64,000 nucleotides of DNA from Lachnospiraceae bacterium (GCA_024682075.1 JAIKZQ010000050.1:40718-104717), one strand, 5' to 3'. Shown: positions 29,966 to 40,073, counted from the first letter of the stretch. The notes: generated by a model not told the origin, from the sequence alone. Made by a program: numbers and translations.

Positions 29966-31042
29966 TCATATTCTCATCTCGGTATCGGGATCAAACAGAT
30001 ACACGCTTTCATACGGCACTGAAAATTCCATCTCCGTATCCATTGCGGGTGTGTTGTGAGGATTGACCTTTAATATTGCCTTATCCTCCCCGATGTTCAC
30101 ATACACGTTCGTATTGTCACCCAGCATCTCGGTAAGCTCTACCGTGCATTTCATTCCGTATGCTCCATCCGTGATCATGGGCACAATGGCCTCGGGCCTG
30201 AATCCGATGATGATGTCCCTGCCCTCGTAAGCACCGATCTTATCAGCAAAATTCAAGCCGAGATCGATCTCATTGCCACCGATCGAAGCTTTGCCGTCTT
30301 TTACGGCTGTTCTTATGAAGTTCATCGGAGGCTCGCCTATAAACCCTGCAACGAACACGTTCACCGGATCAAAATACAATTCCTTGGGAGTGCCGATCTG
30401 CTGAACAACTCCCTCCTTCATGACTACGATCCTGTCAGCCATGGTCATGGCCTCGGTCTGATCATGCGTTACATATATCGTGGTAGCTCCGGTCTCCTTA
30501 TGAATGTTGGTGATCTCGGAACGCATCGTGACTCTCTGCTTGGCATCAAGGTTAGACAGAGGCTCATCCATGAGAAAGATCCCAACCTTTCGGATGATCG
30601 CACGTCCCACGGCAACACGCTGTCTTTGTCCGCCTGATAAAGCTCTGGGATATCTGTCGAGATAATCCGTAAGACCCAGGACAGCCGCAACCCTGGTCAC
30701 CTTCTCTTCTATCTCATCTTCATCGACTCCCTGGAGAGTCAGTCCGTAACCGAGATTATCATACACTGTCAGCTGCGGATACAGCGCATAGCTCTGGAAC
30801 ACCATTGCGATCTCTCGCTGTCTGGGTCCCAGCTCATTTGCACGCTTTCCTTTTATGAGGAATTCTCCCTTACTGATATCTTCGAGTCCCGCGATCATTC
30901 TGAGCGTCGTTGATTTACCGCACCCGGAAGGTCCGACAAAGACAATGAATTCTCCCTTTTCAATGGACAGGTTGAAATCATGAACGGCATGGAATCCGTT
31001 GGGATATATTTTGTTTATGTCTTTAAGTTCCAGATATGCCAT
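29966..31042 (-). CDS. MalK/MsmX-type sugar ABC ATPase (copy 2)
   Basis: GPSGCGKST, LSGGQRQRVA, FLMDEPLSNLDAK, YVTHDQ and C-terminal TOBE-like region. Confidence 0.93.
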   Translation of the reverse strand: MAYLELKDINKIYPNGFHAVHDFNLSIEKGEFIVFVGPSGCGKSTTLRMIAGLEDISKGEFLIKGKRANELGPRQREIAMVFQSYALYPQLTVYDNLGYGLTLQGVDEDEIEEKVTRVAAVLGLTDYLDRYPRALSGGQRQRVAVGRAIIRKVGIFLMDEPLSNLDAKQRVTMRSEITNIHKETGATTIYVTHDQTEAMTMADRIVVMKEGVVQQIGTPKELYFDPVNVFVAGFIGEPPMNFIRTAVKDGKASIGGNEIDLGLNFADKIGAYEGRDIIIGFRPEAIVPMITDGAYGMKCTVELTEMLGDNTNVYVNIGEDKAILKVNPHNTPAMDTEMEFSVPYESVYLFDPDTEMRI

Positions 31043-31057
31043 AAGTCTCTCTCCCGG

Positions 31058-31705
31058 TCACGGTTTCCTGACCTGTTCCTTAGCATCTTTTATGATGCCG
31101 GCAAATACATTTTTCATTTTGATGAGCAGCAAGTCAAAGCCTGTGTAAAGTGCTCCGTACAATATCGGCTCAACTCCCAGAGCCAGCATGTCCGATGCTC
31201 CCGTCACATTTGCCGCGAAAGCATTGACTGCGGCATACACTGTCATGACGAAGAAAAGGATCACAAAAGAATAAATGATATTGAAAATGAAGTTCCTGTA
31301 TCTTTTGTCAGGGAACATCATGTATTTATCATTTGCTCCCTTCGTGCTTTCCGTGAATCTGAGCACATTGTTGACCAGAAGATCGGTAAACACGCCGCCC
31401 GCGAGTCCGAGAATGAAGAGCTGGTCAAGCATGTCGGTGATGTATAACCCCAGTCCCCATAAAAAGAGAAAGCATACGCATCCTGCGAACCACCACTTGA
31501 TCAGTATCGCCCTGATGAGCGGTCCGCCCTTAAACTTCACCTTCCGTCCGGTGTATCTGGCGATCTCCTCATCGGAAACCTCAGGTGAATTATCCTCGGT
31601 CGCATTTACAAGTTCGTCTATTGCCTCGCTGTGGAGATCGTAATAGTTGCTCTCGATATCGGCCTTATCTTTTTTTTCGTCGATCGAAGTCTTCTTTTTG
31701 CTCAT
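31058..31705 (-). CDS. Uncharacterised membrane protein (about 4 TM) in the ABC operon
   Basis: Soluble N-terminus YYDLHSEAIDELVNA, then hydrophobic segments; tightly packed with its neighbours. Confidence 0.75.
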   Translation of the reverse strand: MSKKKTSIDEKKDKADIESNYYDLHSEAIDELVNATEDNSPEVSDEEIARYTGRKVKFKGGPLIRAILIKWWFAGCVCFLFLWGLGLYITDMLDQLFILGLAGGVFTDLLVNNVLRFTESTKGANDKYMMFPDKRYRNFIFNIIYSFVILFFVMTVYAAVNAFAANVTGASDMLALGVEPILYGALYTGFDLLLIKMKNVFAGIIKDAKEQVRKP

Positions 31706-32289
31706 TGATCATCCGAAAGTTCAATCTCACCCATCTGATCATTGCCTTCGATCACCACTCCCGTGGGGATCATGTTAAGGAGCTTTTTGTAAACCGGGAT
31801 GAGCAATGTCAGCACTGAGGCTATGATCAGGAGTATCTCATGTGTATACAACATATTATACGCCTTTGCGATATACACTTCGAGCTTGACCGGATTCTCC
31901 GATCTGGTAAGCGCGGTCTTTACTATCTCTCTGTATTTGAAATCACAGAAGAAAACCACGGCAGTCATGGCAAACATCAGTATGAGCATCGGGTAATTGG
32001 GCTTTTTTCTCCTCGGAAAAGAATTCATGAAACATACTATGAGGAGAATGGAAAAGAGCATTGTGATGAATCCGTAGAGTCCCATGTTCCTGCCAAGTAT
32101 CCTTGCGGTTGTGTTGGACACATTCGTAAGTCCAAGTGAATAAACGCAAAAAGCGATAATGAAGATCAGGAAAGGGATATTCTGCGGACGGCGTTTGAGT
32201 GAGACAATGAATTTACGTAAGAATTCAGGTCCTTTGAAGATGCCGCTGCCCTTCTTTTTATTTTCTTTAGCGCTCTTGCCCATTTTCAC
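31702..32289 (-). CDS. Uncharacterised membrane protein (about 4 TM) in the ABC operon
   Basis: KRRPQNIP followed by TM segments; 4-nt overlaps with both neighbours. Confidence 0.75.
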   Translation of the reverse strand: MKMGKSAKENKKKGSGIFKGPEFLRKFIVSLKRRPQNIPFLIFIIAFCVYSLGLTNVSNTTARILGRNMGLYGFITMLFSILLIVCFMNSFPRRKKPNYPMLILMFAMTAVVFFCDFKYREIVKTALTRSENPVKLEVYIAKAYNMLYTHEILLIIASVLTLLIPVYKKLLNMIPTGVVIEGNDQMGEIELSDDQ

Positions 32290-33359
32290 GCCTCCGGACG
32301 AATAGCATTTGTCGTTTCTTTATCGAAGAAGTGGCATTTTGTGAATCCCACATCGACATAGTCACCATCTTTGTAATCGCACCAGCCCTTGAACTTGCCG
32401 GTTATCTTTACCGTCGAATCCCCGAGACGTCCGTGAACCAGCGTGTTCATTCCGAGATTCTCGTTGGATGTTATCCTTACCTTAATGCTTCCGCCGGGTC
32501 TTACATCTTCGGGGCGGACGCCGAGAGTTACCTCTTTGCCGTTATAGGATGCGAGCATGTCCTTCTCTGCAGGGAGCAGTTCCATCTTAAACTGTTCGCA
32601 TACAGCATTCCCGCCATCGATCTTCACATCAAAGAAATTCATGGGAGGAAGTCCTATGAATCCCGCAACAAAGAGATTGGCAGGATTATCATACAGTTCA
32701 AGAGGTGTGCCTATCTGCTGAACATGTCCCATTGACATGCACACGATCCTGTCAGCAAGAGTCAGTGCCTCCGTCTGATCATGTGTAACATACATCATCG
32801 TGGCACCGAGTCTCTTATGGAGCAAAAGTATCTCACGTCTCGTAGATCCACGAAGTTTCGCATCGAGGTTGGATAGAGGCTCATCAAAAAGAAAGAGCTT
32901 CGGACTTCTTACTATCGAACGTCCCATTGCAACGCGCTGACGCTGACCGCCGGAAAGCTGTGCAGGCTTTTTGTTGAGCTGTTCTGTAAGTCCCAGTATC
33001 TCGGCTGCGGCAAGGACCTTCTTATGAATGACATTGGGATTTTCCTTGCGAAGAGTGAGCGAAAAAGCCATGTTCTCATACACGGTCATATGTCCGTAAA
33101 GAGCATAATTCTGGAACACCATGGCCATGTCACGGTCCTTGGGAGGAGTCTGGGTGATGTCCCCCCCGTCCATTATGAGATGACCGCCGGAAATGTCTTC
33201 AAGTCCGGCAACCATTCTGAGCGTTGTGGATTTTCCGCATCCCGAAGGACCGACGAGAACGATCAGTTCACCGTCTTTGATATCAAGGTTAAAATCATAT
33301 ACTGCCTGTACCTTGTTGTCATATATCTTTTCAAGATGCTGCAGGGATAATTCAGCCAT
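32286..33359 (-). CDS. MalK/MsmX-type sugar ABC ATPase (copy 1)
   Basis: GPSGCGKST, LSGGQRQRVA, FLFDEPLSNLDAK and YVTHDQ. Confidence 0.93.
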   Translation of the reverse strand: MAELSLQHLEKIYDNKVQAVYDFNLDIKDGELIVLVGPSGCGKSTTLRMVAGLEDISGGHLIMDGGDITQTPPKDRDMAMVFQNYALYGHMTVYENMAFSLTLRKENPNVIHKKVLAAAEILGLTEQLNKKPAQLSGGQRQRVAMGRSIVRSPKLFLFDEPLSNLDAKLRGSTRREILLLHKRLGATMMYVTHDQTEALTLADRIVCMSMGHVQQIGTPLELYDNPANLFVAGFIGLPPMNFFDVKIDGGNAVCEQFKMELLPAEKDMLASYNGKEVTLGVRPEDVRPGGSIKVRITSNENLGMNTLVHGRLGDSTVKITGKFKGWCDYKDGDYVDVGFTKCHFFDKETTNAIRPEA

Positions 33360-33864
33360 TTGACTGCTCCTTTAGTAATGCCTTTTCATGAGATGAGAGT
33401 TCTCCGCACCTGATCAGACCCACGACCGCAGAGATCACGCAGCATGCTCCCGATGCAAGAAGGTATGCGGAAACAAGTGTGAACTGTCCTTTGCCCATGA
33501 CTTTTGTGACCACGTCACCGACCGCATAATCCGCCTGTGTGGCCTTGAGAGGAAGAAGGAATATCCTCACCACCTGTATGATGCCTATGAAGATCAGGAA
33601 GAAACTGTAATTTCTCTTATAGCTCTTAACTCCTTCGGAACACAGGAATGCGGCCAGCATGAAGAGAAGGTTATAAACAATGGATATGCCCATCCTCATC
33701 TGATAATAATATGTTCCCACCTCGTAATTGATGTCGGATGCATAGATGTTGATGAAATAAACGACATCAAACAGGATGGCCAGATAGGCGAGGCCGGCAG
33801 AAAGAGTATTCTTGGTATAGCGCATGCGGTCTATCCGCGTGAACTTTTCATCCGCTTCCATCAT
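33352..33864 (-). CDS. Uncharacterised membrane protein (about 4 TM) in the ABC operon
   Basis: DRMRYTKNTLSAGLAYLAI...; ATG at 33864 overlaps the upstream stop (ATGA). Confidence 0.72.
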   Translation of the reverse strand: MMEADEKFTRIDRMRYTKNTLSAGLAYLAILFDVVYFINIYASDINYEVGTYYYQMRMGISIVYNLLFMLAAFLCSEGVKSYKRNYSFFLIFIGIIQVVRIFLLPLKATQADYAVGDVVTKVMGKGQFTLVSAYLLASGACCVISAVVGLIRCGELSSHEKALLKEQSNG

Positions 33865-34451
33865 GCCGCCTCCTTTCCGGATTGTAACAGCTTCTTCTCG
33901 CCGTCCATCAGCACGAATTTCCATACGAGCGTGCCCGTAAGAAGAAGGCAGGAAATTATCGAGAAACCGAAAACATATATGTGAACGTCAAACCAGAACG
34001 TTGATTCCGTATAGTATGAATTCATGAGGTCGGCATAATCACGAAATGCCTGAAAATCAACCTCAGTCAGGAACTTGTTTTTATACATGTCTATCTGTCC
34101 GGATGCCCAGACAGTTACTGCTATATTGGCTATAACGTTAGCCATTACGGCGAAGACATTACCGACATAATATCTTCTGCGGATATGTGTATTGGTCACA
34201 AACAAAAGAAGTGAGATCAGAATGAGTGCAATGCCTGCATGAAGAAAACTTTTGTTAAAGGCCTGCATGTCGTAATAGATAAGCGAACCCGCGATCGGAT
34301 TCCTGTCAGGGTTTTCGGTACTTCTTATAGAATAATAGAATGACTCGTAAAGGTCACTCATTATGCCCAGAGAATAGGCAAAAGTCACGACCGATGATGC
34401 GAGCATTATGAAGCAGACTATCTTCTGCATTATCATCTGTTTCTTGTACAT
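33861..34451 (-). CDS. Uncharacterised membrane protein (about 4 TM) in the ABC operon
   Basis: Four hydrophobic segments, RRRYYVGN loop and FWFDVH. Confidence 0.75.
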   Translation of the reverse strand: MYKKQMIMQKIVCFIMLASSVVTFAYSLGIMSDLYESFYYSIRSTENPDRNPIAGSLIYYDMQAFNKSFLHAGIALILISLLLFVTNTHIRRRYYVGNVFAVMANVIANIAVTVWASGQIDMYKNKFLTEVDFQAFRDYADLMNSYYTESTFWFDVHIYVFGFSIISCLLLTGTLVWKFVLMDGEKKLLQSGKEAA

Positions 34452-34556
34452 TGGAAAATCCCCGTAAGTTTTTCAAATTCCCGGCCCCGAACCGCCGCAG
34501 CAGTCCGGGACCGTAGTATTTGAATCAAGAATCAAAAATCTTTACATGCCTCAGGA

Positions 34557-36866
34557 TCAGTTTCCGAGTGAAGCATAGAAATCCTGATCCTCTTCCCATG
34601 CCGTGTTAAGGATGGTAAGGTACTGTCTTCCGTTATAGGTATCTGCAACCGTTGCAACTGCCTCTGAAGGTGAGCCGAATCCTGCAACTGCTCCGCCGTT
34701 TCCGCTTACGATGATGTTTACAAGAACATTGATCTTATCGTCACCCTTTGCGGAACTGAAATTGGTAGCAAGATCTGTGTAGCTGTTGATCAGATCGTTA
34801 TCAGCAGTTGTGGTAGGAAGAGTTGCGGGAACTGATGTATACCAGCTGTTCTCAGCAAGTCCGAGCTCGGGATGATGGATCGTTCCGAGACCGATAGCAG
34901 TTGAGATATATCCTGCACCTTCACGGCCTGCCGCTGTGGTGCACTGATACTCGAATGCCTGGCTCTTCATGAACGAAAGAGTTGATCCGAGGAACTGACG
35001 TGCATAGTTGGTATAGTTGCCGCTTGCCTTCTCCCAAAGCTCTGCCCTGGTAGCGTCTGAGATCTCAGGCATCTCTACTCCGTTGAAGCTGAAGGTTACA
35101 TAGCTTCCGTCGGAATTGGTCTTGATGAATGCATCGGGACCGTAAGACATGAGAATGGTTCCTTCTGCGCTGTATGCATAGTCAATGAGCTTAAGTGCTG
35201 CGTAGAGCTTGTCCTGGTTGCCTTCAACGCCTGCTGCGGAGATTCCCCATCCGTCAGTCTTGACTGATCTCCAGGACTCGGTAAATCTCATGTATACGCC
35301 GTCAGCATTTGTTCCGTCATACCAGCGTGCGACGGGAACCATGACTGCCATGTATCTCTCACCTGCATCTGCATCAAGCACGCCCTGCTCGTTGTAGATG
35401 GTCTGAGTCTGGTTGTAGTCATAGTGCATGAATCCGTTGTCATTCTCAAGATAGCTCTTGGTGCTCTCACTCTGAGAATTGACAAATGCCTCGGAGATAA
35501 GCCCCTCCTTGACCATGTCATACATTCTGAGAAGTGCTTCGTAGGTCTCTTCTTCCTGACGTGCGTCATGAAGCTGTCCGTCGGTTCCGACATAGAGATA
35601 ATCCTGACGTGATTCAAGTCCTCTTACACCAAAGAGAGTTCCGCAGAATCTGAACATGTCAACACGTCTCTGGTTATTTGCATCCTCACGTGAGAACACA
35701 CCCTGAACAGAATCGGTTCCGTTGAGTGTCTGAGGGTTAGCAACAACGCATCTGAGAAGAGCAACGAGTTCATCGGCATCCCATGCTGCGTTCTGTCCTA
35801 CAAAGAGATTGGAACGGGTTGTTCCGTAATATCCGTCGTATGCAACATCGATATAGTTACGAAGCATGTTGACTGCCTCAACTCCGCTGAGGGTTCCTGC
35901 ATCGTTCATGAGCTGTACGATATTGCCGGCTGCATCATAATTCTTGGTGATGGTCTCAACGGATGTTCCGTCAAGAGATACGACTTCAATATCAACGCTT
36001 CCGGACAAGGGCATGTAGGGCTGATATGCAGCAGGCTTGGTGTTATTGCATGCATCAGCGGTAAACTCGCCTTCGCCGTCAAGAAGTGCCACTACCCAGT
36101 CGGTTCTCATGAGGGGCATTCTCTCGATGTCATCAACACCGTCGAAATAAGGGCTGAAGTAGATTGCACCTGTGTCTACGTTTCCGGTAATGGAAAGGCG
36201 GACAATGGGATTTGCTTCAAGATAAGCCCTGAAATTGGGCATGAGATCAAGATACTCTGCGATATTGACGATAGCTCCGGTCTCACCGAACTCATTGAGC
36301 TTGGTTGCGGTACCGGATACCATGTCAACCTGATCAAGCTGCTCTTTCCAGTAATCGAATTCCTTTGCAGCGGAATTGCCCTGGTATACGCTTGTGAAAG
36401 TCATGCCGAGACGATTCTGAACTTCAACCCAGGTCGGCTTAAGATCGCCTGCCATATAGGTATTGCCATCTGCAAGAGTAATGGTAAGACCTGAGTAAGC
36501 TTCCTGTTTTGCTTCCTCGATCGCTGCAGCGATCTCCTCTTCGGTCTTGCCGTCAGCTTCCATCTGTTCTCTGATGGCATCTTCATCAACAGTGACCTTG
36601 TTAACCTTTGCGATAGTCTCAGAATCAAAGACTATTCCCGTTGCGGCACTGTTGTAACCGGTAGCCATGCGAAGCTCTGTTCCTGCGGCAAACGCAAGTG
36701 GATCTACCGCAACTTCCTCTCCGCCATTACCTTCGTCGCCGGTAACTGTTGTCACAGGCTCGGTCGAGTCAGGCGTAACGGGTACTTCTATCGTATCACC
36801 GCAGCCTGCGAGCATTGTAACCGCCATGCATGATACCAGAAGCATCGATACTAACTTCTTTTTCAT
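34557..36866 (-). CDS. Large extracellular solute-binding lipoprotein (carbohydrate ABC SBP-like)
   Basis: RBS aggagg then MKKKLVS...MLAG/C lipobox; NIAEYLDLMPNF, IYFSPY and LKLIDYAYS..G...MSYGP; ATG at 36866. Confidence 0.85.
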   Translation of the reverse strand: MKKKLVSMLLVSCMAVTMLAGCGDTIEVPVTPDSTEPVTTVTGDEGNGGEEVAVDPLAFAAGTELRMATGYNSAATGIVFDSETIAKVNKVTVDEDAIREQMEADGKTEEEIAAAIEEAKQEAYSGLTITLADGNTYMAGDLKPTWVEVQNRLGMTFTSVYQGNSAAKEFDYWKEQLDQVDMVSGTATKLNEFGETGAIVNIAEYLDLMPNFRAYLEANPIVRLSITGNVDTGAIYFSPYFDGVDDIERMPLMRTDWVVALLDGEGEFTADACNNTKPAAYQPYMPLSGSVDIEVVSLDGTSVETITKNYDAAGNIVQLMNDAGTLSGVEAVNMLRNYIDVAYDGYYGTTRSNLFVGQNAAWDADELVALLRCVVANPQTLNGTDSVQGVFSREDANNQRRVDMFRFCGTLFGVRGLESRQDYLYVGTDGQLHDARQEEETYEALLRMYDMVKEGLISEAFVNSQSESTKSYLENDNGFMHYDYNQTQTIYNEQGVLDADAGERYMAVMVPVARWYDGTNADGVYMRFTESWRSVKTDGWGISAAGVEGNQDKLYAALKLIDYAYSAEGTILMSYGPDAFIKTNSDGSYVTFSFNGVEMPEISDATRAELWEKASGNYTNYARQFLGSTLSFMKSQAFEYQCTTAAGREGAGYISTAIGLGTIHHPELGLAENSWYTSVPATLPTTTADNDLINSYTDLATNFSSAKGDDKINVLVNIIVSGNGGAVAGFGSPSEAVATVADTYNGRQYLTILNTAWEEDQDFYASLGN

Positions 36867-36940
36867 ACTAATCCTCCTTAAGATTAAGTAACAACTATTA
36901 TTCGGATCCTTCATCCGGAATAATCTGGTTTTAGGCAGGA

Positions 36941-37831
36941 TCACTCCTTGACTCCGCCCATGTTAACGCCCTTTGCAAAATACTTCTGTATAAAGGGATA
37001 AATCACAAGTATCGGGATTATCGAACAGACAATAAGTGCATATATTATGGAGTCCGATGAATATACCTCGTTCCATCCTGCCGTATATTCGGGATCCTGA
37101 TACTGCTCAAGAAGCTCTCTTATGAACACCTGCAGAGGCTTTTCAAATCCTCTTGAGATCATCTGACGTGCCCAGAAATATCCGTTCCATCTCGATACTG
37201 CGAAGAACAGTGCAACCGTGGCTATCGTCGATTTGCTCATCGGAATGTAGACTGTCCTGAGCACCTGGAATTCCGTAGCTCCGTCCACTATCGCCGCTTC
37301 CTCGATCTCGGAAGGGATTCCTTCGAATGCATTTCTCAGAAGGATTATGTTCATTGCAGCCATTCCCATTGCAATGACTACAAGCCATTTATCATCCGTG
37401 ATCCCCACACTGTTAAAAACCGACTTCGTGGCCAGATAGTTAAGATACTGCGGAACTATTCCGGCAGAGAACCACATCGTGAATACAAGGAAGAAATTGA
37501 AGAACTTTCTGAACAGGAGGCGCTTCTTGGAGAGCGCATATGCTCCGAGGATCGAGTAAAACATTGCCCAGAGAGTTCCGAACACGGTGAGGAACAATGT
37601 GTTGGAATATGCATTCCAGAACATGTTGTCGCCAAACATCTTACGGAATGCGTCAAACTGTATGTTCTTGGGAAGAAGCACTATCTCGTTGTAATCGACT
37701 TCGTGGGCTCCGCTTATCGAAGCTGAGATCGCATAAACGAATGGATACAGACACATCAGTGCAAACACAGCCAGGAACAGATAGCTGAATATCTTGAATA
37801 TTAATTCTGATATTTCAAGTTTTCTTTTCAT
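36941..37831 (-). CDS. Carbohydrate ABC permease (MalG-like)
   Basis: EAA loop IPSEIEEAAIVDGATEFQ and FFAVSRWNGYF; ATG at 37831 after aggag. Confidence 0.9.
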   Translation of the reverse strand: MKRKLEISELIFKIFSYLFLAVFALMCLYPFVYAISASISGAHEVDYNEIVLLPKNIQFDAFRKMFGDNMFWNAYSNTLFLTVFGTLWAMFYSILGAYALSKKRLLFRKFFNFFLVFTMWFSAGIVPQYLNYLATKSVFNSVGITDDKWLVVIAMGMAAMNIILLRNAFEGIPSEIEEAAIVDGATEFQVLRTVYIPMSKSTIATVALFFAVSRWNGYFWARQMISRGFEKPLQVFIRELLEQYQDPEYTAGWNEVYSSDSIIYALIVCSIIPILVIYPFIQKYFAKGVNMGGVKE

Positions 37832-37842
37832 CTCCGCTCCTA

Positions 37843-38904
37843 TCAATAAAGTGACGTATCCGATGCCTTGCGGGCTATGGTATTGGCTCCGATGACAAGG
37901 AGCATGCTTATTACATTACTCATCATCTCCGCCGCGGAGGATATTCCCTTTGCCGCGCCCTCAAGTCCGTAACGGTTTGCGAGCGTCGAGACGACATCGG
38001 CTGTGATGAATGTGTTTGCGTTATACAAAAGAAGTACTTTTTCATATCCTATGGAAAGAAGAGTTCCTATCCTGGTTATGAGCATGATAACGATGGTTGA
38101 GAGAATGCTGGGAAGGACCACGTATCTCATCTGCGCCCATTTTCCGGCTCCGTCTATCTGGGCAGCTTCGTAACTGGTCGGGGAGATCGATATGATCGCC
38201 GCAAAGAAAACGATGCTTCCGTATCCCGAGCCCTCCCATATTCCGCTGAGAATGTATATGGGCCTGAAGAACCTCGGAAGATTAAGAAGTCCTGCATATG
38301 CCGTTTCCTGATCGACCATTCCGAGCTTGACAAGGAGCTGGGAAACAACACCCATGTTGGAAGTGAGTGCCCCCTGCTTGACCAGCATCACGACAAGAGA
38401 AGTGATGACAACCGTCGACATGAACTTGGGCAGATATGTAAGGACCTGGAAGACACTCCTGAGAATGTTGGAACGGATCTCATTAAAGAAAAGAGCCAGT
38501 ATTATCGGAAAAGGAAATCCGAATAAAAGTCCGTAGAAACTCAGGATGAAAGTATTCCTGAGTGCTCTCCAGAATTCAAAAGATATCGTAGTCTGACCGG
38601 AAAGAAGGACTTTAAAATTGTAGAATCCCGAAAAGAGCTGATCGGATACGGACAGAGTATTGTCGGAAACCTTGAAGCATCCGAGAAGCTCATACATGGG
38701 GAAATATCTCCAGAACAAAAATACGAGGAGCATCGGAATAAGCATCACATACAGACGCCAGTCCTTGACTATGGTGCGTCCTACGTGAAGCCAGTAATGC
38801 TTCTCGACATCATCTCTTACGGCCTGCTCGGGATCCATATGATAAGTGCCGTTTGCCTCATCGAATATGAGATAATCCGAACCCTTCGCTTTTGTATCAG
38901 CCAT
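37843..38904 (-). CDS. Carbohydrate ABC permease (LplB/MalF-like) with N-terminal extension
   Basis: LILALFFNEIR-type segment, TYLPKFMS, ISPTSYEAAQIDGAGKW and GYEKVLLLYN; ATG at 38904. Confidence 0.88.
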   Translation of the reverse strand: MADTKAKGSDYLIFDEANGTYHMDPEQAVRDDVEKHYWLHVGRTIVKDWRLYVMLIPMLLVFLFWRYFPMYELLGCFKVSDNTLSVSDQLFSGFYNFKVLLSGQTTISFEFWRALRNTFILSFYGLLFGFPFPIILALFFNEIRSNILRSVFQVLTYLPKFMSTVVITSLVVMLVKQGALTSNMGVVSQLLVKLGMVDQETAYAGLLNLPRFFRPIYILSGIWEGSGYGSIVFFAAIISISPTSYEAAQIDGAGKWAQMRYVVLPSILSTIVIMLITRIGTLLSIGYEKVLLLYNANTFITADVVSTLANRYGLEGAAKGISSAAEMMSNVISMLLVIGANTIARKASDTSLY

Positions 38905-39484
38905 TTTCGTTTTCCCCGTTTTGGTTCTGTTTCTGTAACCCAAGAAGATAAGATCTCTGATCTTCAAAAATCCCGTCCAGTCTGGATGCCGTAAAAACTA
39001 TCAGGATCGTGAACAATTCCGAAAGAGCATCCATGGTGATGAAATTAAGGATGGCTCCGATCCCGGCTCCCATGATAACAGCCACGATCCCGCGTCCTGT
39101 CTGCATCAGCAGCTGAACGGTCAGCGCATACCCTATCACCAGAAGAACGTTCCCCCGGATCCTGTCCTTGCCCAATGTTTTGATCAGGAGCATCGCGATA
39201 AGGGCGAATTCATTGCCTATTATGTATATGACCAGCTGCTCTGAGGTCCCGCCCTGAATACCCACATACACGATCCCGGCAAGAGCCGCATGAACGGCCG
39301 ACCACGTTCCCCATCTCATCATCACTATCGCCACAACCGCAGCAGATGCGGAAACGGTATAGAGCTGTCCCGGGAACCATTTGCCGGAAGCCGATATTAT
39401 CACCGCTTCGGATACGACGAGGATGATCCCAAACAGAAGATTGTCTATGAACCTGTATTGTCCGTAACTTATCTGTCTGTCCAT
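38897..39484 (-). CDS. Uncharacterised multi-TM protein, first gene of the ABC operon
   Basis: 195 aa with about six hydrophobic segments; RBS gaggag; overlaps the permease start. Confidence 0.75.
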   Translation of the reverse strand: MDRQISYGQYRFIDNLLFGIILVVSEAVIISASGKWFPGQLYTVSASAAVVAIVMMRWGTWSAVHAALAGIVYVGIQGGTSEQLVIYIIGNEFALIAMLLIKTLGKDRIRGNVLLVIGYALTVQLLMQTGRGIVAVIMGAGIGAILNFITMDALSELFTILIVFTASRLDGIFEDQRSYLLGLQKQNQNGENENG

Positions 39485-39548: not shown

Positions 39549-39623
39549 TGTAAGCGCTTACTTGATGAGACGATTATAACAATTCATTTTCATAAATGCA
39601 ACTGAAAAATGTAAGCGCTTTTA
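39549..39623 (-). promoter_or_regulatory. ABC-operon promoter flanked by two LacI/CcpA(cre)-type operators
   Basis: Minus strand TTGCAT-N17-TG.TATAAT (-35 at 39596-39601, -10 at 39573-39578); operators tgtaagcgcttact (39549-39562) and tgtaagcgctttta (39610-39623). Confidence 0.8.
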
Positions 39624-39911: not shown

Positions 39912-39954
39912 AGGATAGTTGAAAAAAAGTCCCTTACGAGGACTTTGGCAAACT

Positions 39955-40040
39955 GGAGACGTATCGAAGTGGTTATAACGGGGCGCACTCGAAATGCGTT
40001 TGCCCTCCGGGGCACGAGGGTTCGAATCCCTCCGTCTCCG
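39955..40040 (+). tRNA. tRNA-Ser (anticodon CGA), long variable arm, CCA not encoded
   Basis: Acceptor ggagacg/cgtctcc plus discriminator G; anticodon arm gcgca-ctCGAaa-tgcgt; variable arm tgccc-tccg-gggca; T arm gaggg-TTCGAAT-ccctc. Confidence 0.95.
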
Positions 40041-40041
40041 T

Positions 40042-40073
40042 AAGCTTCCGCCGGACCGGCGGAAGCTTTTTTT
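40042..40073 (+). terminator. Intrinsic terminator after the tRNA
   Basis: aagcttccgccg-gac-cggcggaagctt followed by a T run. Confidence 0.9.

Follow-up and report, generated by a model that had tools for sequence, protein, structure and literature searches.

The locus described here raises the question of what an ATP-binding cassette (ABC) sugar importer does with a second ATPase and five small membrane proteins. What a type I ABC importer is made of is held to be settled, i.e., a solute-binding protein (SBP), two transmembrane domains and two nucleotide-binding domains, and Firmicute sugar importers usually share one ATPase. In a 64,000-nucleotide stretch from a rumen Lachnospiraceae bacterium (GCA_024682075.1 JAIKZQ010000050.1:40718-104717; hereafter the window), listing and translation of the open reading frames (ORFs) gave ten co-directional ORFs at positions 29966-39484 of the minus strand, in the order o1, permA, permB, SBP, m2, m3, atp1, m4, m5 and atp2. 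This ten-gene layout, which had been proposed in a first-pass annotation of the window, is borne out and is not an annotation artefact. The analyses presented below show a real ABC importer locus of type I (CUT1/LplABC-like) that is inherited together, is transcribed over those junctions that were looked at and includes conserved extra membrane proteins and two types of ATPase. We would give an even chance to the reading that the extra proteins belong, as subunits or indispensable partners, to one enlarged importer of pectin oligosaccharides with a dedicated ATPase heterodimer.

Conservation and co-inheritance of the locus

The m4 profile was used as the anchor of a contig scan, and the locus maps were made with tblastn and hidden Markov models. 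The m4 profile recovered 25 loci in metagenome-assembled genomes (MAGs) from rumen and gut, whose hosts were Lachnospiraceae, Oscillospiraceae, Christensenellales/Christensenellaceae, unclassified Clostridia and a single Bacilli MAG (taxa as labelled by the MAG submitters). The first-pass annotation had proposed to check conservation across Firmicutes and Mollicutes; it was found in gut and rumen Clostridia and in the one Bacilli MAG, and no Mollicutes were seen in the m4 scan. The order o1-permA-permB-SBP-m2-m3-atp1-m4-m5 was identical in every locus long enough to show it among about 30 from rumen and gut, the sole locus missing o1 being that of the Bacilli MAG (L035), in which it was not found. 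The same nine-gene order was found in human-gut-type contigs (one m5 variant is present on 114 contigs, three of which were read and are human-gut-type assemblies) and in a distant Clostridia family in which the small proteins are 28-38% identical. Across the loci, the identity to the window proteins varied from 55 to 97% for the permeases (permA, 55-97%; permB, 57-97%), from 65 to 94% for the ATPases, from 36 to 89% for the SBP and from 27 to 86% for the small proteins. The recurrence of the gene order in about 30 independent loci is far beyond chance.

Among 41 relatives, SBP, o1 and m2 were present in exactly the same seven genomes, and m5 in those seven and one fragmented MAG. In an even sample of about 400 Clostridia genomes, SBP, m4 and o1 were present in the same two. 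Neither the core without the accessory genes nor the accessory genes without the core was found in the 41 relatives or in the approximately 400 Clostridia, in each of which only two candidates for the SBP were scored. Gain and loss affect the system as a whole. Clostridia of gut and rumen carry it widely, yet it is rare per genome sampled, with a prevalence of about 1 in 200-400 Clostridia species and presence in 7 of the 25 genomes of the window's genus. The first-pass annotation had left room for small genes that are unconserved with the ABC core or belong to known, unrelated families; what was found is strict conservation and no known family.

The small ORFs, like the other genes of the operon, are real genes under purifying selection. 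The ratio of nonsynonymous to synonymous substitution rates (dN/dS), computed against orthologues that were 74-86% identical and with dS of at least 1.2 where a ratio was obtainable, was 0.06-0.11 for the small ORFs where it could be estimated (o1, 0.09-0.11; m2, 0.06-0.08; m3, 0.06-0.08), which is similar to the SBP value; for m4, dS was saturated and gave no ratio. Co-variation was explored with a mirror-tree approach, i.e., the correlation of residual distance matrices for 15 taxa, which are few and non-independent and in which recombination may confound the result. This exploratory analysis recovered the known pairs permA-permB (r 0.52) and atp1-atp2 (r 0.44) and, equally strongly, the pairs m3-permA (r 0.60), o1-atp1 (0.47) and m2-m4 (0.44), with residual co-variation of m3 with permB as well as permA. 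The correlations support functional coupling and hint at two sub-modules, one of permA, permB, m3 and SBP and the other of o1, atp1, atp2, m2 and m4.

Operon structure and transcription

The starts of four genes were refined (permA, 38904; permB, 37831; SBP, 36866; m3, 33864), and with the refined starts a Shine-Dalgarno sequence is present for most genes. Overlaps of 4-8 nt occur at five of the nine junctions (o1/permA and m3/atp1 by 8 nt; m2/m3, atp1/m4 and m4/m5 by 4 nt), and the remaining ones are separated by 11 nt (permA/permB), about 74 nt (permB/SBP), 105 nt (SBP/m2) and 15 nt (m5/atp2). Both permeases matched BPD_transp_1 (PF00528) of Pfam (E 2.5e-12 and 1.7e-13), permA was a MalF/UgpA and permB a MalG/UgpE equivalog match in NCBIfam, and the translations contain the EAA motifs YEAAQIDGAG and EEAAIVDGAT. 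The SBP (about 770 aa) and the five small hydrophobic proteins had no family in Pfam or NCBIfam.

Table 1. Genes and sequence features of the importer locus (window positions, except for the loci named in the last row)
Feature	Position	Strand	Description
o1	38897..39484	-	195-aa membrane protein; first gene of the operon
permA	37843..38904	-	Type I ABC importer permease, MalF/UgpA/LplB-like, EAA loop
permB	36941..37831	-	Type I ABC importer permease, MalG/UgpE/LplC-like, EAA loop
SBP	34557..36866	-	Large SBP of 769 aa, a lipoprotein with lipobox LAGC
m2	33861..34451	-	196-aa protein with four transmembrane helices (4-TM), novel family
m3	33352..33864	-	170-aa 4-TM protein, novel family; ATG overlaps m2 stop (ATGA)
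atp1	32286..33359	-	MalK/UgpC-type ATPase, OB/TOBE C-terminal domain
m4	31702..32289	-	195-aa 4-TM protein, novel family
m5	31058..31705	-	215-aa protein, novel family; 4-helix TM bundle
atp2	29966..31042	-	Second MalK/UgpC-type ATPase
GC-rich hairpin	34480..34513	-	Within the 105-nt SBP-m2 spacer (34452-34556)
Perfect palindrome GTAAGCGCTTAC	39550..39561	.	Like a catabolite-responsive element (cre) or LacI-type operator; ~65 nt upstream of o1 start
Degenerate second copy of palindrome	39611-39622		60 nt further up from the perfect copy
Spacers with analogous hairpins	L039:7025-7145, L024:7698-7845, L020:7740-7825, L037:7670-7815, L053:9456-9560		

The whole operon is covered by bovine-gut metatranscriptome assemblies, i.e., assembled contigs that are 95-99% alike, and single contigs span four of the nine junctions (m2/m3, m3/atp1, m4/m5 and m5/atp2). 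Coverage by RNA is 10-50 times higher over the SBP gene than over the other operon genes and falls off after SBP, where the SBP-m2 spacer contains the hairpin (dG -50.9 kcal/mol, z -5.6). GC-rich hairpins of 11-14 bp are found at this spot in six lineages including that of the window, with no shared sequence there; those of five divergent loci are 11-12 bp long and unrelated in sequence. The hairpin is probably a partial terminator or an mRNA stabiliser within the operon that gives a high ratio of SBP to membrane components, and such a hairpin is the usual device for producing SBP in excess.

A sigma-70-like -10 box lies directly upstream of o1, together with the palindrome GTAAGCGCTTAC, and o1 thus opens the transcription unit. 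In three close relatives (L014-L016), the perfect copy of the palindrome occupies the corresponding position. As a predicted palindromic operator, it suggests that the operon is under catabolite or LacI-type control.

Two ATPases

The ATPases atp1 and atp2 are 52% identical to each other (BLASTP). Both match the ABC_tran, OB_MalK and TOBE_2 families of Pfam, and both pass the cut-off of the UgpC subfamily (432 bits) with 440 and 446 bits. The intact motifs that the first-pass annotation had read in the two window ATPases are canonical in all orthologues as well, i.e., Walker A, Q-loop, LSGGQ, Walker B and H-loop were canonical in the 28 atp1 and 25 atp2 sequences compared, those of the window included. 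In a maximum-likelihood tree, they formed two clades (support of 98/92 for atp1 and 100/99 for atp2), each of which includes Christensenellaceae and Bacilli representatives, and all lineages are found in both. Both clades are old and catalytically intact. They differ by 32 clade-specific fixed differences, with the helical subdomain (residues 95-134) and the C-terminal domain holding many of them. Such differences would fit a pair of ATPases specialised as partners; the simplest arrangement would be a heterodimer, with one permease opposite each ATPase.

A third ATPase of the MalK/MsmK-like type is encoded elsewhere in the genome (contig C29:9799-10902). It is 52-53% identical to atp1 and atp2, lies outside both clades and is probably shared by the other CUT1 systems of the genome (on contigs C22, C29, C46, C27 and C10). 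Within the loci, atp1 is always located between m3 and m4. The atp2 gene directly follows m5 in about half of the loci and in others is found 1-5 kb further on, behind inserted genes for glycoside hydrolases of families 28 and 105 (GH28/GH105), or upstream in one locus (L037).

In two Lachnospiraceae loci (L029:1731-2396 and L033:1718-2383), one or two extra ABC ATPase-like genes are located directly upstream of o1, with a tblastn match to atp2 of 27-28% identity. The topology of the ATPase tree departs from the taxon labels, and SBP homologues of about 70% identity are filed under rumen MAGs named 'Anaerolineaceae bacterium' (P0059, P0075 and P0087). Together, these labels and the mismatch between tree and labels indicate either that contigs were mis-binned or that the locus as a whole has been transferred horizontally.

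The S-component-like protein o1

AlphaFold2 models were made for o1 and m5 only, as single chains. The first-pass annotation had counted six transmembrane helices in o1. It is a membrane protein, and its model, with a predicted local distance difference test score (pLDDT) of 86 and a predicted template modelling score (pTM) of 0.82, has five hydrophobic helices and a C-terminal helix that is amphipathic. In Foldseek, the top five matches were all S components of energy-coupling factor (ECF) transporters (ThiT 4tkr twice, ThiT 3rlb, 5edl and RibU 3p5n), with probabilities of 0.82-1.0 but template modelling (TM) scores of only 0.41-0.49 and E values of 0.01-0.6. PanT (4rfs_S) ranked tenth with a TM score of 0.52 and an E value of 1.4, and PanT, CbiM and NikM appeared lower in the list, mixed with unrelated proteins.

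The sequence models of S components did not recognise o1. It had no Pfam match at E values up to 10, S-component families such as PF12822, PF07155 and PF09515 included. A scan of its own genome with PF12822 picked up four proteins that pass the cut-off and a fifth, weak match, none of them o1, and hhalign comparisons with three S components of the same genome gave probabilities below 1% (with single-sequence templates, whose sensitivity is low). Given the low TM scores, the weak E values and the blindness of these sequence models, o1 is called S-component-like only, and on its predicted fold this term seems preferable to S component.

Several polar and aromatic residues within the helices of o1 are invariant (E26, R57, W58, Y87, R131 and D152). 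The family comprises 491 representatives at 50% clustering, and its members occur only in genomes that have the SBP system, both among the 41 relatives and among the approximately 400 Clostridia. The longer homologues have no recognisable extra domain and no match to other operon proteins, so that they were uninformative as Rosetta stones and gene fusions were rejected as a source of evidence. No EcfT or EcfA gene is present in the operon. A scan of the genome with PF02361 (EcfT/CbiQ) gave matches only on contigs C9, where the general EcfT is encoded, and C52.

Four novel membrane protein families

Each of m2-m5 has four hydrophobic helices. BLASTP and the six pairwise hhalign comparisons found no similarity among them, and an origin by duplication of a unit of two membrane proteins and an ATPase was therefore rejected at the sequence level. 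They had no Pfam match at E values up to 10, which includes PF02361, and profile searches found no sequence match in the PDB. PF04854 (DUF624/YesL) gave no match at E values up to 10 among ten sequences, five from the window and five from a human-gut locus. Known families for the small proteins were rejected, since the matches in Pfam, NCBIfam and the PDB were scattered, below threshold and inconsistent between orthologues. The five small proteins, which had been described as orphans, indeed belong to no known family; they are one S-component-like protein and four mutually unrelated 4-TM families.

Conserved segments are found on both sides of the membrane. In m2, two extracellular loops (AGSxIYYDMQxFN and STFWFD) and a cytoplasmic RRRYY motif are conserved. 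The cytoplasmic N-termini of m3, m4 and m5 are conserved; that of m4 contains EFFRKRxVxLKRxPQ and is accompanied by a conserved cytoplasmic C-terminus (GNxxMGxIE), and m5 has a cytoplasmic N-terminal region of about 60 aa in front of its transmembrane bundle. The m5 model had a pLDDT of 82 overall and above 90 in the transmembrane core, and no fold match in the PDB was found for it (best Foldseek E value 1.3, TM score below 0.3). Its 1303 clusters at 90% identity are all labelled 'hypothetical', and a cluster look-up returned no names for the common homologues.

The SBP and its likely substrate

The SBP has a signal peptide with a lipobox and no match to SBP_bac_1, SBP_bac_8 or DUF3502 of Pfam. 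A phmmer search matched it to AlgQ1 with an E value of 3e-5, and its profile matched AlgQ1/AlgQ2 at 3e-17 and Smon0123 (5gub) at 1e-10; of the two stretches reported against AlgQ, the best-scoring one covers profile positions 274-486 of 672. The SBP thus appears to be a distant, enlarged member of the group of SBPs for uronate oligosaccharides, from which its ligand is inferred. Homologues carry the label 'hypothetical protein' at NCBI, and one that is 70% identical is labelled 'putative aldouronate transport system substrate-binding protein' at JGI.

At least 14 related loci have, behind or within the operon, genes for GH105/88, GH28, a GDSL esterase and a TIM-barrel protein of xylose-isomerase-like type, and a pectinesterase of carbohydrate esterase family 8 (CE8), KduI and a short-chain dehydrogenase/reductase (SDR) are also among the genes that flank or interrupt it in relatives. 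A human-gut locus reads CE8 pectinesterase, the nine genes, GH28, GH105/88, an AraC regulator, atp2, KduI, SDR (KduD-like), esterase and GH4. In the human-gut loci L039-L041, an AraC regulator lies inside or next to the operon. The earlier statement that the operon has neither glycosidase nor regulator thus holds for the window and fails in these loci and in many relatives in which GH28 and GH105/88 are found inside or next to it. In the genome of the window, genes for GH105, GH28, a CE8 pectinesterase and KduI lie together on contig C35 (43.5-48.4 kb); apparently, the locus was split or the transporter was acquired separately from these pectin genes.

Given the relatives of the SBP and the gene neighbours, the substrates are likely to be pectic oligosaccharides, i.e., saturated or unsaturated oligogalacturonides or fragments of rhamnogalacturonan. 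The cello-, manno- and xylo-oligosaccharides that the first-pass annotation had suggested as ligands do not fit, because the same relatives and neighbours indicate pectic/uronate oligosaccharides.

Surroundings of the operon in the window

The neighbours of the operon in the window encode a glycogen-branching-like enzyme, a phosphoglucose isomerase and a DUF4430 protein, and no glycosidase adjoins it. A tRNA-Ser (CGA) gene (39954-40041, plus strand) lies between the promoter region of the operon and a divergent gene of 441 aa, and it is directly followed by a strong terminator-like hairpin (40042-40068). Window positions 1-8000 have a G+C content of 33-36%, compared to 46-50% elsewhere in the window, and contain very large ORFs (980 and 1040 aa) beside a glycan-synthesis cluster; this segment may have been acquired recently.

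Proposed mechanism and alternative explanations

If the extra proteins are parts of one enlarged importer, a dedicated atp1/atp2 heterodimer, rather than the shared MsmK-like ATPase of the genome, would power it. The proteins m2-m5 and the S-component-like o1 would be stoichiometric or obligatory membrane partners of the transporter and would probably pack around permA and permB. Their conserved extracellular loops may help the SBP, which is unusually large, to dock, and the ATPases may be contacted by the conserved segments on the cytoplasmic side. The hairpin behind SBP would raise the amount of SBP relative to the membrane parts. Once imported, the oligosaccharides would be cut intracellularly by GH28 and GH105/88 before entering the KduI/KduD pathway.

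Several observations weigh against this proposal. For the four 4-TM families, neither a recognisable motif nor a homologue of known function nor a fold match was found, so that the role of m2-m5 is pure inference, as is, on present sequence evidence, the physical association of the parts. The protein o1 resembles an ECF S component, and S components normally partner EcfT/EcfAA' and not type I importers; a general EcfT is encoded elsewhere in the genome (contig C9). The atp2 gene is not always adjacent and was not found within 19.5 kb in one genome (G413); the heterodimer is hence not proven. No pectin enzyme adjoins the operon in this window, and the metatranscriptome contigs may include those of close relatives or DNA carry-over.

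The locus might instead encode two translocation units, i.e., a type I importer of SBP, permA and permB and an ECF-like unit in which o1 catches the substrate and some or all of m2-m5 form a scaffold analogous to EcfT, this second unit being driven by the same MalK-type ATPases or by one of them. The best structural matches of o1, which are all ECF S components, its invariant polar and aromatic residues, placed in the helices as for a buried binding pocket, and the gene order, which can be read as [m2 m3 atp1][m4 m5 atp2], speak for such an arrangement, and ECF modules as a rule have two different ATPases. The hint at sub-modules, in which o1 is grouped with atp1, m2 and m4, and permA and permB with m3 and SBP, keeps this explanation alive, but the co-variation is weak and comes from 15 taxa. 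Moreover, the ATPases are of the MalK/UgpC type with TOBE domains and not of the EcfA/CbiO type, m2-m5 resemble neither EcfT/CbiQ nor one another, the fold match of o1 has a TM score of about 0.5 and an E value of 0.01 and the Pfam models of S components miss it. S components also usually carry vitamins and not bulk carbon sources. We regard two separate units as unlikely.

Alternatively, o1 could be a group II S component for some vitamin or cofactor that works with the housekeeping EcfAA'T, and m2-m5 could be factors for assembly or quality control, or regulators or sensors that, for instance, link the activity of the transporter to nearby AraC or chemotaxis genes, outside the translocating complex. 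The genome does encode a general EcfT and several ordinary S components, and a gene for a methyl-accepting chemotaxis protein or AraC flanks the operon in some loci. The cytoplasmic tails of m3, m4 and m5 are conserved, and C-terminal domains of the MalK type are known surfaces for regulatory contacts; that of MalK contacts the regulators MalT and EIIAGlc. This explanation also seems improbable, since o1 is found only in genomes with this transporter and its stop codon overlaps the permA start, four strictly co-inherited membrane proteins are many for a role as chaperones or sensors, m2-m5 have no signalling domain and regulator genes are not consistently nearby.

A hybrid importer of an undescribed kind is conceivable as well, in which the MalK-type heterodimer would serve both the SBP-dependent permease pair and an ECF-like arm of o1 on m2-m5, or in which o1 would act as a substrate relay within the membrane. 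We consider such a hybrid quite unlikely; in the first of these forms, one machine would take up pectic oligosaccharides and a second solute derived from pectin. Finally, that the small ORFs are mis-called or are passengers functionally unrelated to the transporter, for which only their lack of any functional annotation speaks, is barely credible and effectively excluded by the purifying selection on them, the invariant synteny across families down to 27-38% identity, the matching phyletic pattern, the overlapping start and stop codons and the transcripts that span gene junctions.

Comparison with known transporters

The enlarged importer proposed here shares its core with several known systems. 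AlgM1M2SS-AlgQ1/AlgQ2 of Sphingomonas sp. A1 (4tqu), which imports alginate, and Smon0120-0123 of Streptobacillus moniliformis (5gub), which imports unsaturated glycosaminoglycan disaccharides, are likewise type I importers of acidic (uronate) oligosaccharides with two EAA-loop permeases and a MalK-type ATPase that has a C-terminal regulatory domain, and AlgQ and Smon0123 are the only solved relatives of the SBP. To our knowledge, both consist of an SBP, two permeases and one homodimeric ATPase, with no extra membrane proteins. In contrast, the SBP described here is about 250 aa longer and matches theirs over only about 210 profile positions, and two types of ATPase and five extra membrane proteins are encoded with it.

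The LplABC, YtcQ-YtcP-YteP and YesOPQ(+YesL) systems of Bacillus and Paenibacillus are likewise Firmicute CUT1 importers with a lipoprotein SBP. Their loci, which include those annotated as 'aldouronate transport system' in KEGG and the rhamnogalacturonan loci of B. subtilis, also lie beside GH105 and esterase genes for pectic/uronate oligosaccharides, and with YesL (DUF624) there is an earlier case of an uncharacterised membrane protein whose gene accompanies such a transporter. These loci encode no ATPase and use a shared MsmK-type ATPase, whereas two ATPases are encoded here. The nearest LplBC-like paralogue in the genome of the window is 28% (permA) and 37% (permB) identical and is without such partners. 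TogMNAB of Dickeya dadantii, compared here by description only, is also a CUT1 system, and its oligogalacturonide substrate is of the class predicted for the present SBP. It occurs in a context of KduI/KduD-type catabolism and has the canonical four-gene layout with TogA as its single ATPase. The systems named so far are all of canonical composition.

ECF transporters (S, EcfT and EcfA/EcfA') resemble the locus in their two non-identical ATPases and small integral membrane partners, and the ECF S components ThiT, RibU and PanT are the nearest matches to the fold predicted for o1. They differ from it in that the ATPases here are of the MalK type, an SBP and EAA-loop permeases are present and no EcfT-like protein is encoded. 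The view of the first-pass annotation that no characterised transporter has such a layout agrees with searches of the literature on Firmicute pectin ABC transporters, DUF624 and CUT1 heterodimers, in which none was found. In the reviews and genomic papers searched, pectin uptake by Firmicutes is treated only generically as 'ABC transporters'.

Implications for glycan uptake in gut Clostridia

In its conserved second ATPase clade and five extra membrane proteins, the locus departs from the canonical composition, and a type I ABC importer with conserved novel membrane partners and a dedicated ATPase pair would be new. A widespread system in which the importer is always accompanied by four membrane-protein families that are new, by an S-component-like protein and by two specialised ATPases lies outside the settled picture of these importers. 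It makes testable the question of how Firmicutes import large acidic oligosaccharides without SusC/D. If the extra proteins are subunits, five families of 'hypothetical protein' would be assigned a function, and the locus would represent a new architecture for glycan uptake in the Gram-positive pectin fermenters of the rumen and the human colon.

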